A DNA stretch of 48,167 nt from the IMG/VR virus record IMGVR_UViG_2861053794_000003, positions 1-48,167 of that record; one strand, 5' to 3'. Below, one piece after another: positions 27,001-33,000 of the stretch (position 1 is the first letter of the stretch; each line of letters begins with the position of its first letter). The DNA comes from a virus. Its lineage: Duplodnaviria; Heunggongvirae; Uroviricota; Caudoviricetes. Position numbers: made by a program.

Positions 27001-30000
27001 CAGCGCAGACTTCACTGCATCAGCAGTGACCAGTTTTTTCATTTCTGTCATGGTTTTCTCGCTGTGAGATGTGATTACGGGAGGGGCGTGGACTTTGGCT
27101 CTGCTGACTGACCGGCACTGATTTTTTCAGCCGCCATGGCATCAATCTTTTTACGGATGTAGTTGCGGATGATTTTATAACCACCACTCACCAGATACAG
27201 TGCACACACAGCCGTACAGAAATACAGCTGTATTTGCTGAATAAATGACATATACCCTTACCTTTAATATTGACTACAGAAACAGTTACCGGTTAAAAAG
27301 TAACTGCGTAAACAATGGCCTTCTTTAATTGAGTTGTTGTATTCCTTAATGGGTTTGGAATATCACCCGCCAGTCAACAAATTGCTCTTTGACTGGCGGT
27401 TTTTTTACCCTGATTACGCGTTATTCACTTCCACCACAATGCTGTCAATCAGCACCGGGTATGTCGCACCATTAGTGATATCAGTCACGCGTAACTTGTC
27501 TGCCCTAAACGTGCCAACCGGAGACTGCGACAGCATGAACGGTGTCCCGTCCTGACCATCAATGACCGGCGTCACCTCAATACTGTTGTGACCGGCAAAA
27601 CGGAAACCCAGCGTATGCCACTCATTATTAAATGCGCCGAATGACCCCAGCTTCGTGTTCTGCGCCGTGTTTCCTTTGTGATACATCACGTTAAGGTCTG
27701 TGGCATCGCTCTGTACGTAGAACGATGCCAGCAGGTTATGACCGGCATTACCTTCCAGAGTAACCCCTTGTGGCAGACCAGAAACCGGCCAGTACAGCGC
27801 CAGTGCGTACTGATTAGCCGTAAGCGCACCATCAACCTTAAACCGGCAGCTGACAAGCCCCCCTTTACCCAGCAGGTCCGCACCATTACCGGCATCATGC
27901 TCAAGGTACCAGGAGGATTTGCCTGTTTCCTTGGTCAGTTTCATGGCCTTACCCCCGCTGGCTCCGGCATCATCCACGGTCTGAGCCTTACCGCCTCCGG
28001 CAGTCCAGCCCTGCGGTGCCAGCTGCCCTTCAGACTCAGATGCCCGGTAAGCAAACAGCGTACTCATCGTCGTGGTGTCAGCCGGTGGCGTGGACGGTTT
28101 TGATGGTGCATCAGGTGATGGCTTCTCATCCGGTGATGTTACGGTCTGTCCGCCCATCAGTTCAGCCGTGCGTCCTGCATGGAGCAGAATAGCTGAGGCC
28201 AGACGGTCAGAAATGATGCCCCTGCGTGCCCATGAACTGAAATGGCTGTCACGCTGTGTCGAGACAAAACTGCCCTGGGTACGGGATGCCGCACCGTAAT
28301 ACCCGATAGCCACAATATCCGGGTCTTCCGTCGGAGCATTCGTTGGCGTGTTAGTGCCGTTTTCATCCGTCAGGAACGCCACAAAGAAAATATTCTGTGC
28401 TTCCTTGCCTTTGTAGCCACCGTATACCGCCTCATATTTATCGGTGCCAGCGTTTTTCCAGTAATATGTCGTATCACCACAAATCCACGGCACCGTGGCA
28501 GCATTTCCACTCACACACTGCGCAGCAAGCGGAGACAGGTCAGTTCTGAACTGCTGAACCATGGTCGTGAATAAACCATTATGCTGCTGACTTCCCGATG
28601 CAAGGTCTGCTTCTCCCTGCATCCAGACCACTGCCAGAAGTTTGTTTTTCGGGTTCTTCGCCAGCGCCGCTCTGGTACGGCTTACCAGGTCCTGATACAG
28701 AGGTTTACCGACTCCCCAGCGTGAAGAATCAGCGGAAGCACCGCTGGCCTCACTGAATGAACCGTCCGGCCCGCTGGTGAATGCTGACCCGCCACGGCAA
28801 CAGGGCACCAGAAGTATCCCGGCATTCTGCGGGATATAAGGCAGCAGTTTTTTGGCAATATGCAGCCCCTGACTCACACAACCATACTGCCCCTTGTTCA
28901 GGTCAGCTTTCGGGTGGTTTATCCCGCTCATGTCCTGCACATCATGCAGGCAGTGGTCTGCCGGAATGATGTCATTGTATTTACACGGCGTACCGCCTGG
29001 CGTGACCGTGCTGCGGCGTGCCAGTTGCTTAATCCGTGGGTCCGGGCGGTCAAATGAATCCGGTAACGGAAGCCCTTCACCATAGGACATGCCATTTGAC
29101 TGCCCCGCCAGAACAACAACAAAGTAATATTCCGGCTCACTGACTGTGCTCATTACCGTACCGCTGTCACCCGACGGCTTCACCACAACAGGCGTGGTGA
29201 CATCACCCTCCGCAGCAATCGCCTGCATCAGGGTATAAGGCGTAATAGCAACCGGACTGCCAAACGGCTGCCAGCCTTCCTTCAGTTTTTGTGACAGTCG
29301 CTCCGCAAGCTCTGACGGTGAAGCCGCCCTGACCACATCATAATGCTTAAATGTCATTGCTCCTCCCGGACGGGATAATGTGTTAACTAAGATGAGAGAG
29401 CAGATGACAGCCCCGGCCACATGAAAGTTCTGAGAGGGAAGTGCTGCCTGCTGCTCCATTACACAGATTAATTATCTGTCTGGTAGTATTCAGCGGCTGA
29501 TTAGAATACTTCACATTTTGTTATTTTGTGCAGCCCGTTACCATTCGTAGCGGGCTTTTTTAGTCCATAAAAAAGCCCCTCCGGAGAGGGGCATACTAGC
29601 TATATATCCATTTATCATTGGCTGCGTGGTGCCGGGTGCCTCCCGGTGAGCTCAGCCCGGTGTCACTGAGCCCGCACATTCTCGATCCAAGTTATCGTCG
29701 GAGATAATACCTGATACACCAGACGCCCCTCCGCACAGGGGGATTCACCACGCGCAGAGAAGAATACTGAACACTATTTTCTCCAGGCAATATGCAATAA
29801 CATGAAGTGTGAGATGACTTACAATTATAAAAAACAGCCTACAGAAGACTCCTAAATAAAGCCATATCAAAATGAGTAACAGGAAAAGAATCCAGGGAAA
29901 AATTTACGAGCAGGTATTATCCAGCAACAGTTCAGACACCATAACTTATTGCCGATAGCTACCATCAATAATTTCTTTCATAAAAAAGCCCCTCCGAAGA

Positions 30001-33000
30001 GGGGCTGACATACGCATTTGCTTTCATCATTAATATGGCGCCGGGTGCCTCCCAGTGCTCCATAACTGATTAATATGGAACGCGGTTTCATTCAGTTGCA
30101 TTCATGAATAACACTCTAATCAGTCCGCCCCGCCGCTTAGGGGGATTCGCCATATAAATTGAAAGTACTGAACACATCTGTCACAAACAATATGCAATTG
30201 TATGAATTGTGAGATTATTATCAATAACACAAAATTATAGCTCTAGTACATAAACAGCAGATTAAACAAGAACAACAAAAGTTTTGAATTGCACGGTGCC
30301 GGGTGCCTCCCGGTGAATTCTGCAATGACCAGACAGAATCCGCAACTTGCTACTAACGCTAATGCGACTAAGCCTAACAGTCATTATGCCCCTCCGCACA
30401 GGGGGATTCACCATGCGCTAAAAAAATACAAAACATCACGTCCCTCTGACAATACGAAGCACCATAAAATGTGAGTTATTTATCAATTCTTAATTCTGGT
30501 TACAGGAATATTCCGAATCAAATCTTTAAAAAAAGAAATTCAAATGCATGGTGCCGGGTGCCTCCCGGTGAACAGACCGTCCGTGATACCAGTCGGCAAC
30601 ACAGGAAATTAATGGTATCACCCCACCGCACAGGGGGATTCACCATGCAGGCGTTTTCTTAGCAAACTAACTGCGCGCCCGGCAACTCCCAACCATATAA
30701 AACGTGGAGTTTGTAGCATTTATGCACATAACTCACAGGAGTTATCTTAAAAAAAGCTGACAATGCTTCCCCGGCAACGCAATAACTTTATCCCCTGAAG
30801 TGGCATCCCCCGTATTATCGACAAGCTCAAAAAGGAGCCAGTCATCTGAGGATGACTGGAAAAAGGAAAGATAAAAAATTATTCATCATACAACCTTCGT
30901 TGCAGGGGAGAATCCTGCGGTGCAGCAACATACAAAAACATAAGCCAACTAACAATATGCAGGCATAGCATTTTCGGATTTTGTTATATGGCACGATAAC
31001 TGAATGCTTACCTGATATACAGTCCGGTATAAAGTTGCAAAAAACCGCCAGTTAAGGCGGCATTCAAACAGACAACAGGATTTTTTCGTAATTTTAACAA
31101 CGTCGGGGTGGCGCATCGTCAGTCCCTGTCAGGAAGTACCAGAACTCCCACCAACAATGCCCCACCCCATTCAGCGTTATAAAACACGGCACAGGAACTA
31201 TCAATGTTTTCTGTTACAGTTCGGGAAAAACGATAAACACGCCACGGGCTCTTTTTGCTGTGAATTAAAAACGGTCCTGAAAGCCAGCTCATCATTTTTT
31301 TACTGGACCGTCACCGGGGACTCGAACCCCGCACTCTCAACATAAAAGGTTGATGCTCTTTCCTGATGAGCTAGTGACGGCATGGTGGCCCTTGCTGGAT
31401 TTGAACCAGCGACCTGGCGGTTATGAGCCGCTCGCTCTCACCACTGAGCTAAAGGGCCGGAATGCAGAATAATAATCACGGGGATTTAATTCTGCAATAT
31501 CAGTAACCATTACTGATTAAATTCAGAACTTCCCTGGCCGTTTGCTCAAAACGTTCAGCTTCCAGTTCAACACCAATTGCATGACGCCCAAGCGCCATAG
31601 CGGCTTTTATGATTGAGCCCGACCCCATAAAGAAATCCGCCACCATGTCACCAGGACGGCTGCTCGCACAAATTATCTGCCGCAGCATCTCCGCCGGTTT
31701 TTCACAGGGGTGTTTACCCGGGTAAAACTGGACCGGCTTGTGCGTCCACACATCGGTATATGGCACCTGCGCCGTCACGCCAAAATACCGCCGCAGATGC
31801 TTATATTCACACTGCAGTTCCGCATACTGCCGGTTCAGTGAGGTATACGCGGCAACCAGCTGGTGGTGGGGTTTTTCCAGTTCACCGCGTTGATGCTTTT
31901 CTTCTGCCACCCGGGCAAACAACGCCTGTAATTTCAGATAATCGCGTTCATTCGGTAACTGCCACTGACTGGTACTGAACCAGTGCGACACCATGTTTTT
32001 CTTTCCTGTGGCATCAGCAATCTGTTTTGCCGTTATCCCCAGAGCGGCACGCGCATCACGAAAGTAAGATATCAGCGGGGCCATCACATGCTGTTTCAGT
32101 GCCCTGCCCTTCGCCTCATAGCCATCATCTTTTGGGCGATACGGTCCCTGATAATGTTCCGCAAACAGAATGCGCTCTGTGGCCGGGAAATACGCACGCA
32201 GGCTTTCCTTGTTGCACCCGTTCCAGCGTCCGGATGGCTTCGCCCAGATGATATGGTTCAGCACATTAAAGCGTTCACGCATCATGATTTCGATGTCAGA
32301 CGCCAGGCGATGGCCACAGAACAGGTAAAGACTTCCGGTAGGTTTCAGCACCCGCCAGAACTGCGCCAGACACTGGTCCAGCCACTTCAGGTAATCTTCA
32401 TCACCCGCCCACTGGTTATCCCAGCTCTCAGGTTTCACTTTAAAGTACGGCGGGTCCGTGACTATCAGATCAACAGAATTTTCGGGTAACGACCGGATAA
32501 ATTCCAGGCAGTCGGCGTTGATTAACTCACAACTGGATATTTTTACAGTATTAAACATGGATCATTAAGCCTGTCTCTGATAGGCTCATTCTGCTTTTGC
32601 GCAAAGCAGTGGGCCTGAGGTTTGCTTGTGATCCCAATGCATGAGCAGATGGCTGGTGAGCGCCCCTAACACCCACCAGCCGCCCATTTACCACAAATAA
32701 AAAAGCCTTCACTGTGGAAGGTGTCTGTAACAACCAAACTGATAGTCTGCCAGACCCGCCATAACAAGCTGGGTCAGTATTAACTGGCAGCGTTCGCGTG
32801 AAAGGTATGTGTTCTGCGCAATCTCCCCGACTGTCGCCGGTTCGGTGACGCTCAATTCATTAAACACCACTCTGGCGGTTTCTGTCATATCCTGCTGTTT
32901 CTGCATGTCTTTTTCCCTTTTCCGGTTAACGTGACACACCAATAGCTCTTGTCGAAAAAGCCAGCAAGCTGAAAGACCGGTATTAATAACCACCTGCACA

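Follow-up and report, generated by a model that had tools for sequence, protein, structure and literature searches.

The small RNA family STnc100 (RF02076), entered in Rfam as a gammaproteobacterial sRNA, belongs to prophages, and its relatives include PasD1/PasD2, EcOnc27/sRNA103 and EcOnc13. One member has been described in the EHEC Stx2 phage Sp5, where EcOnc27/sRNA103 lies right 3' of stx2B with an esterase downstream (Tree et al., 2014; Gruber and Sperandio, 2015; PMC12711010), and where both Hfq-CRAC and Northern evidence has been presented for it (PMC4104026, PMC7873438). Sequence variants at this site downstream of stx2B have lately been tied to HUS outcome (PMC12711010). Another example is found in EPEC E2348/69, which encodes PasD1 and PasD2 (Pearl Mizrahi et al., 2021; Zhu, Shabalina and Storz, 2026, preprint); their Northern signal is Hfq-dependent and they are among the top RIL-seq hubs (PMC8550237), and PasD and STnc100 are considered homologous (bioRxiv 10.64898/2026.05.13.724894). 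A seed, UGUGAG, has been inferred from RIL-seq data in the 3' linker of PasD, the only member for which this is so. In the EHEC strain EDL933, 11 STnc100 copies have been shown to be transcribed, one of which (STnc100_4) was verified by Northern blot (PMC5331693). Apart from overexpression effects of sRNA103, no validated target or phenotype has been described for STnc100 members (PMC7873438).

In the window, by which the whole 48,167-nucleotide stretch analysed is meant, a lambdoid E. coli prophage carries four diverged paralogous STnc100-family genes in tandem, as non-coding units at 29563-30678 on the minus (late) strand (Table 1). All four match RF02076 over the full model (positions 1-206) in scans of both the region and the whole window, each above the gathering threshold of 47 bits, and the consensus helices P1, P2, P4 and P5 are present in 4/4 units. 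Chance is excluded by whole-window E-values of 1e-14 to 7e-29, together with covariation of P1 and P4 in homologues. The Rfam scan thus bears out the earlier note, which had seen four repeat units here and had called for such a search, but not the novelty implied by its finding no named RNA family, as STnc100 is already named and curated; the locus is an unusual array of a catalogued prophage small RNA and not a new kind of RNA. The uniform spacing of ~255 bp given in that note approximates only the last two of the core-to-core distances (409/258/255 bp), while its view that no reading frame is conserved agrees with the ORF list, in which all ORFs overlapping the region are short (<=63 aa) and have no frame in common. 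Tandem Repeats Finder did not report the array because the units are too diverged, and RefSeq leaves the array region of a 100% identical locus in E. coli strain 317 without any annotation, where four STnc100-family ncRNA genes should be given.

Table 1. Coordinates of the array units and neighbouring features in the window.
Feature	Position	Strand	Evidence or remark
Unit 1, STnc100-family sRNA gene	29563..29783	-	RF02076 (Rfam) 131.9 bits, E 6e-30
Unit 1 scaffold core (P1 to P1)	29624-29753	-	
Unit 1 intrinsic terminator, GCCCCUCUCCGGAGGGGC + U6	29569..29592	-	Terminator scan; fits Rfam terminator helix
Unit 2, STnc100-family sRNA gene	29976..30181	-	RF02076 96.6 bits
Unit 2 scaffold core	30033-30155	-	Variant bases in P1, P2, P5
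Unit 2 intrinsic terminator, AGCCCCUCUUCGGAGGGGCU + U6	29981..30006	-	Terminator scan, Rfam alignment
Distal sigma-70-like candidate promoter, TTGATA-16-TACAAT, upstream of unit 2	30197..30224	-	Scan 10/12
Unit 3, STnc100-family scaffold without own terminator	30246..30441	-	RF02076 103.6 bits
Unit 3 scaffold core	30291-30416	-	
Proximal promoter-like site of unit 3, TTGTCA-18-TATTTT	30423..30452	-	Promoter scan
Unit 4, STnc100-family scaffold, variant architecture, without terminator	30500..30678	-	RF02076 76.6 bits
Unit 4 scaffold core	30546-30648	-	
Fifth-unit remnant, leader only	29496..29522	-	Between unit 1 terminator and esterase start
Two phage tRNA genes, Lys-UUU and CAU anticodon	31304..31458	-	ARAGORN, Rfam, RefSeq of identical prophage
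SASA-family (NanS-p-like) carbohydrate esterase	27414..29357	-	RefSeq of 100% identical locus, E. coli strain 317; ORF list

The units share helices and late-region context with other STnc100 members, and units 1 and 2 share the terminator as well; the four copies here stand in tandem and differ from one another in centre, leader and linker. Unit 1, whose MFE fold recovers P1, P2, P4 and P5, is ~82% identical to Stx2-phage copies and is the nearest of the four to the EcOnc27-type copy downstream of stx2B. In contrast to EcOnc27, which has demonstrated Hfq binding and is a single copy beside the convergent sponge AsxR, the window has four copies of the putative sRNA gene, no stx and, in 28500-32500, no AsxR match. 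Unit 3 has the most PasD-like P3/P4 sequences. In unit 4 the family's pseudoknot is replaced by a nested P3 hairpin, GAUACCA/UGGUAUC with a 21-nt loop, a subtype also present in loci L104 and L111. The fifth-unit remnant is a direct repeat of the unit 1 leader (29754-29780; 70% identity), and no scaffold comes after it.

The gene order in the RefSeq record of the identical prophage is Q, methyltransferase, tRNAs, array, esterase, holin, lysozyme, such that, on the late strand, the array has the tRNA pair upstream and the esterase directly downstream, followed by the lysis genes. The array thus has the late-region location and the orientation of the late genes that are expected of STnc100. The same order is found at loci L002, L104 and L123, and the context in EPEC PP2 (Q, PasD2, esterase) matches. 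The array had been thought to occupy the place of stxAB. In Stx2a_WGPS6, however, the tRNAs are followed by stx2A, stx2B, one STnc100 copy and the esterase. What the array takes up is therefore the STnc100 slot downstream of stx, as an expansion of the single copy resident there in the Stx2 phage. The stx-equivalent slot is represented here by a 620-bp gap (30680-31303).

The scaffold of each unit begins with an 8-bp closing stem (P1), after which come, in this order, an invariant hairpin (P2), an H-type pseudoknot in which the segment after P2 pairs with the loop of hairpin P4 (P3/P4), a class-specific variable loop of 20-45 nt that is conserved within classes, and a second invariant hairpin, P5 (CCGGG-AGGCA-CCCGG). 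The two hairpins noted earlier, which read CCGGG-TGCCT-CCCGG and CCCCT-CCGCAC-AGGGG on the plus strand, are indeed in 4/4 units, with small variants in unit 2. The closing stem had been described as only partly matched in units 1 and 2, but it has 8 bp without a mismatch in 4/4 units: it is GCGUGGUG/CACCACGC in unit 1 and AUAUGGCG/CGCCAUAU in unit 2, where compensatory changes make it perfect, and the differences between units 1/2 and units 3/4 are likewise compensatory substitutions. When 36 diverse homologues were aligned, compensatory changes were found at 7/8 pairs of P1 (95.5% of cells paired) and at 7/7 pairs of P4 (90%), values matched by 0/500 shuffles, and slid controls dropped to ~45% paired; the covariation analysis that had been suggested thus strongly supports both helices. 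Among the homologues, the 5' strand of the P3 pseudoknot takes 31 distinct forms, and the cognate helices average 6.9 bp vs 5.0 bp for non-cognate ones (p = 1e-9). This pseudoknot is absent from the current Rfam structure, RNAalifold misses the pseudoknotted scaffold too, and the fifth P2 pair of the Rfam consensus is unsupported, being unpaired in 16/36 sequences. The mutually exclusive fold that had been proposed is pairable in 83% of cells because both of its sides are conserved, yet it has zero compensatory changes.

It might be thought that the repeats are DNA-level features, whether MITE-like elements flanked by terminal inverted repeats, sites of recombination or decayed coding sequence, since an 8-bp inverted repeat bounds every core, copies are spread over many prophages and related phages arrange their units in different orders (the 112-nt type leads in the window and comes last in L104). 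This is hardly credible and close to refuted, being contradicted by the covariation pattern: the inverted repeats covary between copies and use G-U pairs that would be mismatches on the other strand, which points to selection on RNA and not on a transposase site. Across the helices of the homologues, G-U pairs are abundant (GU:20 at pair 91-116, for example) and fix the RNA strand. Orientation is also fixed relative to the late genes, no reading frame is common to the units, and homologues are transcribed. A MITE- or IS-derived repeat was considered as a specific candidate and rejected, with inverted repeats of no fixed sequence and a fixed orientation. The earlier reading of a minus-strand, RNA-level function in a family of prophage sRNAs is borne out by RF02076 membership, by covariation with strand-specific G-U pairs and by documented sRNA homologues, which are transcribed, Northern-verified and Hfq-bound.

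The near-identical minus-strand terminators (GCCCCTC-NNNN-GAGGGGC-T6) reported after units 1 and 2 were confirmed, 26-31 nt past the closing stem. The terminator scan found none for unit 4 and none for unit 3 before the next unit, and the Rfam alignment of unit 3 has the terminator part of the model deleted; among 294 scored units from other loci, a terminator is present in 186 and absent in 108. Between scaffold and terminator, units 1 and 2 have an AU-rich single-stranded linker of ~30 nt, and the two linkers have AAUGAU in common while neither contains the PasD seed UGUGAG. The block around the distal candidate promoter (CTCACA ... TTGCATATTG) recurs upstream of units 1-3 in the repeat analysis and the unit alignment; because the promoter scan as a whole shows no enrichment over shuffles, the evidence for this promoter is weak and at the level of consensus. 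Closer to the scaffold, a TTGNNN-18-TANNNT arrangement is aligned in 4/4 units with invariant TTG and TA columns, and in unit 3 its end is separated from P1 by ~7 nt. PasD2 has its mapped 5' end at the first nucleotide of P1, and by analogy this proximal site may serve as a promoter.

Taken together with the literature on homologues, from which transcription and Hfq binding are carried over, these features suggest that the units probably encode base-pairing sRNAs that depend on Hfq and have a conserved 5' scaffold as their basis. The RNAs would be produced in the lysogen from their own putative promoters and also within the Q-antiterminated late transcript, would bind Hfq via the terminator/U-tail module, and would pair in trans with mRNAs of host and prophage as presumed targets, with the scaffold serving as a structured, protected 5' end. 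The pairing regions, placed provisionally in each unit, would differ from unit to unit, so that the array would widen the target range. A terminator is the usual Hfq-binding module, and the lack of one in units 3 and 4 counts against this reading; these two units probably contribute only read-through or late transcripts ending at the unit 2 terminator, or are decaying copies. The most conserved parts of the units are structured hairpins and not a single-stranded seed, which is atypical for Hfq sRNAs and also counts against.

The same terminators, lying inside an operon that needs read-through, bear on an improbable alternative, in which the units are cis elements that influence whether the Q-antiterminated transcript is read through into the esterase and lysis genes, how it is processed or how stable it is. 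Such a role would fit units whose orientation is in every case that of the late genes, whose place is between Q/tRNAs and the lysis cassette, and whose P2 hairpin is near-identical to the terminator hairpins of units 1 and 2, making alternative pairing conceivable; yet homologues are discrete, Hfq-bound sRNAs in uninduced lysogens (PMC8550237, PMC5331693, PMC4104026), the downstream gene is not constant (esterase, holin or a further unit), and the relation between terminator and P2 is lost in PasD and has no counterpart in units 3 and 4, which lack a terminator. PasD is like the window units in P1, P2 and P3/P4 topology, with P3/P4 resembling those of unit 3, in its position between Q and esterase, and in its layout of linker, seed and terminator. 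Unlike them, it has an altered P2 (CCUCC-UUGG-AGGGG), a truncated P5 and a different terminator, and it scores under the RF02076 gathering threshold.

Arrays of 2-4 STnc100 units turn up repeatedly across Enterobacterales, some of them spaced and others tight. In the tight style, 3-4 scaffolds are separated by 7-29 nt spacers and followed by one terminal terminator (L047, L048, L175, L226). The scaffolds of Pantoea-type phages stand back to back with spacers of this length and one terminator at the end, and their internal units lack a linker seed of their own, which suggests that the scaffold has a function of its own. On this basis one could argue, tentatively and against the odds, that the pseudoknotted scaffold itself is the functional module, as a protein binding site or decoy or in processing or stability, with arrays raising copy number or valency and with Hfq binding and seed pairing secondary or confined to some members. 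The tight arrays with their one terminator are what such a module would predict, as are the intact scaffolds of units 3 and 4 despite lost terminators, the repeated adjoining of phage tRNA genes by the family, and the contrast between P2 and P5, which are sequence-invariant across Enterobacterales, and P1, P3 and P4, which keep only their pairing. On the other hand, it has no known partner protein, the Rfam scan of 28500-32500 at E<=10 matched no family of ribozymes, riboswitches or protein-binding RNAs, PasD is abundant and Hfq-dependent despite degraded P2 and P5 (PMC8550237), and conservation of the variable loops within classes fits a pairing role equally well. A doubtful proposal is that lambdoid phages across Enterobacterales have in the STnc100 scaffold, with its closing stem, two invariant hairpins and covarying pseudoknot, an autonomous structured RNA module whose function is distinct from seed pairing; if true, the module might bind or titrate a host or phage protein, or direct processing next to phage tRNA genes, and spaced and tight tandem arrays, that of the window included, would be multivalent versions of it.

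Prophages of the same type encode anti-sRNA sponges at the same locus (PMC4104026), namely AsxR and AgvB (RF02703/RF02702), which are Hfq-bound, occupy the interval from the late promoter to the lysis genes, and make up dyads together with sRNAs of the STnc100 type (PMC4104026, PMC7873438). The variable regions of the window units are unlike one another, and part of the PasD RIL-seq partners are non-coding regions, so it has to be asked whether the units are sponges too, in which the variable centre or linker would imitate target sites on mRNAs and so titrate a core sRNA in the manner of AsxR and AgvB. This is very improbable, as the known sponges are a different family of ~60 nt on the opposite, convergent strand, unrelated in sequence and defined by a conserved 3' region of ~42 nt and a variable 5' region of 14-18 nt, neither model matches either strand of 28500-32500 at E<=10, and PasD chimeras are mostly with mRNAs. 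Among multi-copy sibling sRNAs, a parallel is offered by Qrr1-5 of Vibrio, which are paralogous Hfq sRNAs with a common conserved body, combine redundancy with diversification, and have been compared with the Pas sRNAs (Zhu, Shabalina and Storz, 2026, preprint). The Qrr sRNAs are dispersed, chromosomal and have one seed, whereas the window copies are tandem and phage-borne, with presumably different pairing regions.

The STnc100 family occupies a medically important site, directly downstream of stx2B in Shiga-toxin phages. To what is known of it can now be added that there are prophages with four diverged copies in succession, that spaced and tight arrays recur across Enterobacterales, and that the conserved part is a covariation-supported pseudoknotted scaffold missed by the Rfam and RNAalifold models. 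This structure offers handles for structure-guided mutants, with which the function of the scaffold can be separated from that of the seed.

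The four repeat units that lie on the minus strand between the tRNA genes and the esterase are almost certainly members of the STnc100 family (RF02076). In a covariance-model scan with Rfam 15, where the gathering score of this family is 47, each unit was matched over the full length of the model, and a scan of the whole window recovered the same four and no STnc100 copies beyond them. RsmY, TarB, Ysr49 and other Rfam families gave sub-threshold matches only, on the terminators, and were rejected. The earlier note could attach no named RNA family to the repeats, which the Rfam search has now supplied as a curated assignment for all four, whereas its reading of the repeats as RNA-level elements, such as prophage sRNAs, is supported by this membership together with the covarying helices.

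STnc100 units of the window and tight arrays of STnc100 scaffolds in Pantoea-type phages
Feature	Location	Strand	Content	Score or spacing
Unit 1	window 29563-29783	minus	RF02076 STnc100	131.9 bits
Unit 2	window 29976-30181	minus	RF02076 STnc100	96.6 bits
Unit 3	window 30246-30441	minus	RF02076 STnc100	103.6 bits
Unit 4	window 30500-30678	minus	RF02076 STnc100	76.6 bits
Tight array	L047 1957-2314		3-4 STnc100 scaffolds	AU-rich spacers, 7-29 nt
Tight array	L048 4143-4658	minus	3-4 STnc100 scaffolds	AU-rich spacers, 7-29 nt
Tight array	L175 about 12896-13384	minus	3-4 STnc100 scaffolds	AU-rich spacers, 7-29 nt

Reading of the sequence at 29000-31200 and a repeat search identified two conserved blocks, GGTGCCGGGTGCCTCCCGGTGA and GCCCCTCCGCACAGGGGGATTCACC on the plus strand, each in four copies, which with the four Rfam matches confirms the number of units described earlier; the uniform spacing of about 255 bp was not borne out, the blocks being 409, 258 and 255 bp apart. 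Tandem Repeats Finder called no array across the four units because they have strongly diverged outside these blocks (mean column identity is 65% in their alignment); they are better described as arrayed paralogues than as a "tandem repeat". As had been claimed, the region has no conserved reading frame; its ORFs reach at most 63 aa, with no frame in common, and a coding sequence was rejected on these grounds. The near-identical intrinsic terminators reported on the minus strand 3' of units 1 and 2 (GCCCCUC-NNNN-GAGGGGC-U6) were also found, each behind an AU-rich linker of 26-31 nt. The scaffolds, the structured cores made up of helices P1 to P5, are intact in units 3 and 4 as well, but the terminator is missing there, being replaced by a deleted version in unit 3 and by a decayed version in unit 4.

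Homologues were drawn from viral contigs scanned for the P2 block, which gave 120 loci with 148 units and 91 unique cores (centres of 51-79 nt), and from a two-anchor pattern scan of species-representative genomes, which gave 116 stretches spanning Citrobacter, Enterobacter, Klebsiella, Kosakonia, Pantoea, Serratia, Rahnella, Salmonella, Leclercia and others. In an alignment of 36 diverse cores, compensatory changes were found at 7 of the 8 pairs of the closing stem P1 (95.5% of cells paired) and at all 7 pairs of the hairpin P4 (90% paired); none of 500 shuffles matched these values, and sliding the partner columns reduced pairing to about 45%. Frequent G-U pairs show that it is the window's minus strand that is under selection. 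A DNA-level explanation, in which the repeats are a MITE or other DNA repeat, is essentially excluded and was rejected, since the inverted repeats covary and use G-U pairs that are strand-specific. The hairpins P2 and P5 are invariant in sequence and therefore uninformative on pairing, and in 16 of the 36 sequences the fifth P2 pair drawn in the Rfam structure does not form, its base probably being bulged. The alternative fold proposed earlier between GGUGAAU and AUUCACC is not supported: 83% of cells are pairable, but there are zero compensatory changes and the fold cannot be told apart from its shuffles. It is formally possible as an alternative pairing of conserved sequence.

A further helix, P3, is absent from the Rfam consensus and is formed where 6-10 nt lying 3' of P2 pair with the P4 loop, giving an H-type pseudoknot. 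Its 5' strand takes 31 distinct forms among the 36 sequences, and in 68 of 90 unique cores its 3' strand falls within the loop of P4, while in most of the others it overlaps the P4 helix by just 1-3 nt. Cognate strands form helices of 6.9 bp on average as opposed to 5.0 bp for non-cognate strands (p = 1e-9), and helices of 7 bp or more are formed by 63% and 16% of pairs, respectively. Unit 4 and its relatives in loci L104 and L111 constitute a subtype whose P3 takes the form of a nested hairpin with a loop of 21 nt. Thermodynamic folding recovered P1, P2, P4 and P5 in units 1-3 and only P1, P2 and P5 in unit 4, and the z-scores of the four cores were -1.8 to -2.3, a calculation that includes no pseudoknot energy term. 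A divergent unit was also observed on the minus strand of locus L048, within a 1.1-kb spacer between units at 8506-8611 and 9715-9832 (coordinates of the reverse-complemented locus), where P2 is swapped to CACGCC-UAGU-GGCGUG and P5 to CCG...CGG, with P1 and the context of the P4 3' strand (CUCACC) retained. This sequence suggests that the otherwise invariant P2 and P5 are truly hairpins and swappable; PasD of EPEC has a similar hairpin change.

The best-supported mechanism is that the units are four paralogous genes for Hfq-associated, trans-acting sRNAs, which we consider probable. Each RNA would have a 5' scaffold that is structured and protected, and a pairing region that differs by unit, and the RNAs would be made in the lysogen and also as part of the late transcript; that the units are instead cis-acting elements of the late operon appears distinctly unlikely. 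The EHEC relative EcOnc27/sRNA103, an STnc100 copy located 3' of stx2B, is Hfq-CRAC-positive and Northern-verified and is paired with the sponge AsxR in a convergent dyad, and at least 8 Sakai prophages have such dyads in the interval from the late promoter to the lysis genes (PMC4104026; PMC7873438; PMC12711010). We regard it as very improbable that the units are themselves sponges. EDL933 has 11 annotated STnc100 copies, each with RNA-seq reads, of which STnc100_4 has been confirmed by Northern blot (PMC5331693), and STnc_100 has been found in STEC outer membrane vesicles (PMC12370729). PasD1 and PasD2 are abundant RIL-seq hubs with an Hfq-dependent Northern signal and the predicted seed UGUGAG (PMC8550237 and supplement), and a 2026 preprint comes to the conclusion that PasD and STnc100 have a common ancestor and that STnc100 matches are frequent near Pas genes (10.64898/2026.05.13.724894). 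The literature contains no validated direct target or mechanism for any family member.

According to its sequence and the coordinates in supplementary table S6 of PMC8550237, PasD2 begins at the first nucleotide of P1, and its scaffold is followed by a single-stranded linker with an inferred seed and then a terminator, a layout shared by units 1 and 2. The arrangement TTGNNN-18-TANNNT, which ends about 7 nt 5' of P1, is aligned in all four units with TTG and TA as invariant columns; a promoter scan scored it for unit 3 only, and a distal promoter-like block, TTGATA-16-TACAAT, reached 10/12 for unit 2. Because the scan overall gave no enrichment over shuffles (4 found vs 4.2 expected), these elements are taken as putative promoters. 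No family-wide promoter consensus was found in 243 unique upstream regions beyond an E. coli-type subset.

Arrays recur elsewhere: the 296 units counted in 240 loci include 18 doublets, 4 triplets and 5 quadruplets. In spaced arrays (L104, L133, L202, L229 and the window) the spacers measure about 140 nt and there is usually a terminator per unit, and tight arrays of Pantoea-type phages (L047, L048, L175 and L226) have scaffolds 7-29 nt apart and a single terminal terminator, so that internal scaffolds lack a linker or terminator of their own. It is mainly for this reason that a scaffold with its own function, as a protein-binding or processing module, is kept open as an explanation, albeit an unlikely one. 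The tight arrays imply a polycistronic scaffold RNA, possibly processed as tRNA clusters are. The array of L047 begins about 130 nt past a tRNA gene. In L104 (4984-5196 and 6956-7937), a close relative with methyltransferase, tRNAs and esterase as in the window, one STnc100 copy and two ORFs (241 and 92 aa) are followed by four tandem copies of other classes and in a different order; the units thus resemble cassettes that are shuffled and flank moron insertions.

The window belongs to a lambdoid prophage of E. coli. Over the array region it is 100% identical to E. coli strain 317, and of 5426 complete E. coli genomes just 17 have the whole four-unit array. The RefSeq order on the late strand is Q, two hypothetical genes, a DNA methyltransferase, tRNA(CAU), tRNA-Lys, an unannotated stretch, a SASA-family esterase, DUF1378, DUF826, holin and lysozyme. 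The array had been thought to stand in place of stxAB; in the Stx2 phage locus Stx2a_WGPS6, the order is Q, three tRNAs, stx2A, stx2B, one STnc100 copy and the esterase, so that the array takes up the place of a resident STnc100 gene downstream of stx and stxAB is not replaced by it. PasD2 is at the corresponding place in EPEC E2348/69, between Q and the esterase. Megablast against phage genomes gave almost no matches, and the connection between unit 1 and Stx phages emerged only with sensitive blastn. The stx-equivalent slot is a 620-bp gap from tRNA-Lys to unit 4 (30680-31303), with no annotated gene and no match to phage genomes. Minus-strand terminator-like hairpins lie at 31044-31061 and 30838-30859 in segments that fold well (z about -2.2 to -2.4), and a GCATATTG motif at about 30953-30960 resembles one by the putative unit promoters; the gap may hold further small RNA genes of other kinds. 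The tRNA at 31383-31458 was called Met (anticodon CAT) by ARAGORN and tRNA-Ile by RefSeq on an identical gene, and is presumably a lysidine-modified ileX-type tRNA, like ileZ of Stx phages.

On the plus strand at 29532-29562, a strong hairpin resembling a terminator and carrying a T6 run (AGCCCGTTACCATTCGTAGCGGGCT-TTTTTT) was observed back to back with that of unit 1, an arrangement resembling the convergent dyads AsxR/EcOnc27 and AgvB/EcOnc06 of EHEC prophages at this locus. The hairpin may mark the 3' end of a short plus-strand RNA that is antisense to the 5' UTR of the esterase; the Rfam models of AsxR and AgvB did not match it, and AsxR was not found in the Stx2a_WGPS6 locus searched for comparison. 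Downstream of the unit 1 terminator, a minus-strand copy of the unit 1 leader (29496-29522, 70% identical) is followed by no scaffold and resembles a fifth unit that was truncated and joined to the 5' UTR of the esterase (esterase start at 29357), and this 5' UTR (29358-29562) had no BLAST match in any of about 240 collected loci. Directly past the esterase stop codon, a long hairpin (CCGCCAGTCAA...TTGACTGGCGG, 27383-27415) follows a run of A on the late strand and so reads as a plus-strand terminator; EPEC has the convergent sRNA PasA at the equivalent position, but the hairpin shows no sequence relationship to the published PasA probe.

The feature thus belongs to a known, named family, to which the new elements are modest additions: four sequence variants arranged as a rare four-gene array, the finding that arrays recur and come in two styles, and a covariation-supported pseudoknot absent from current models.
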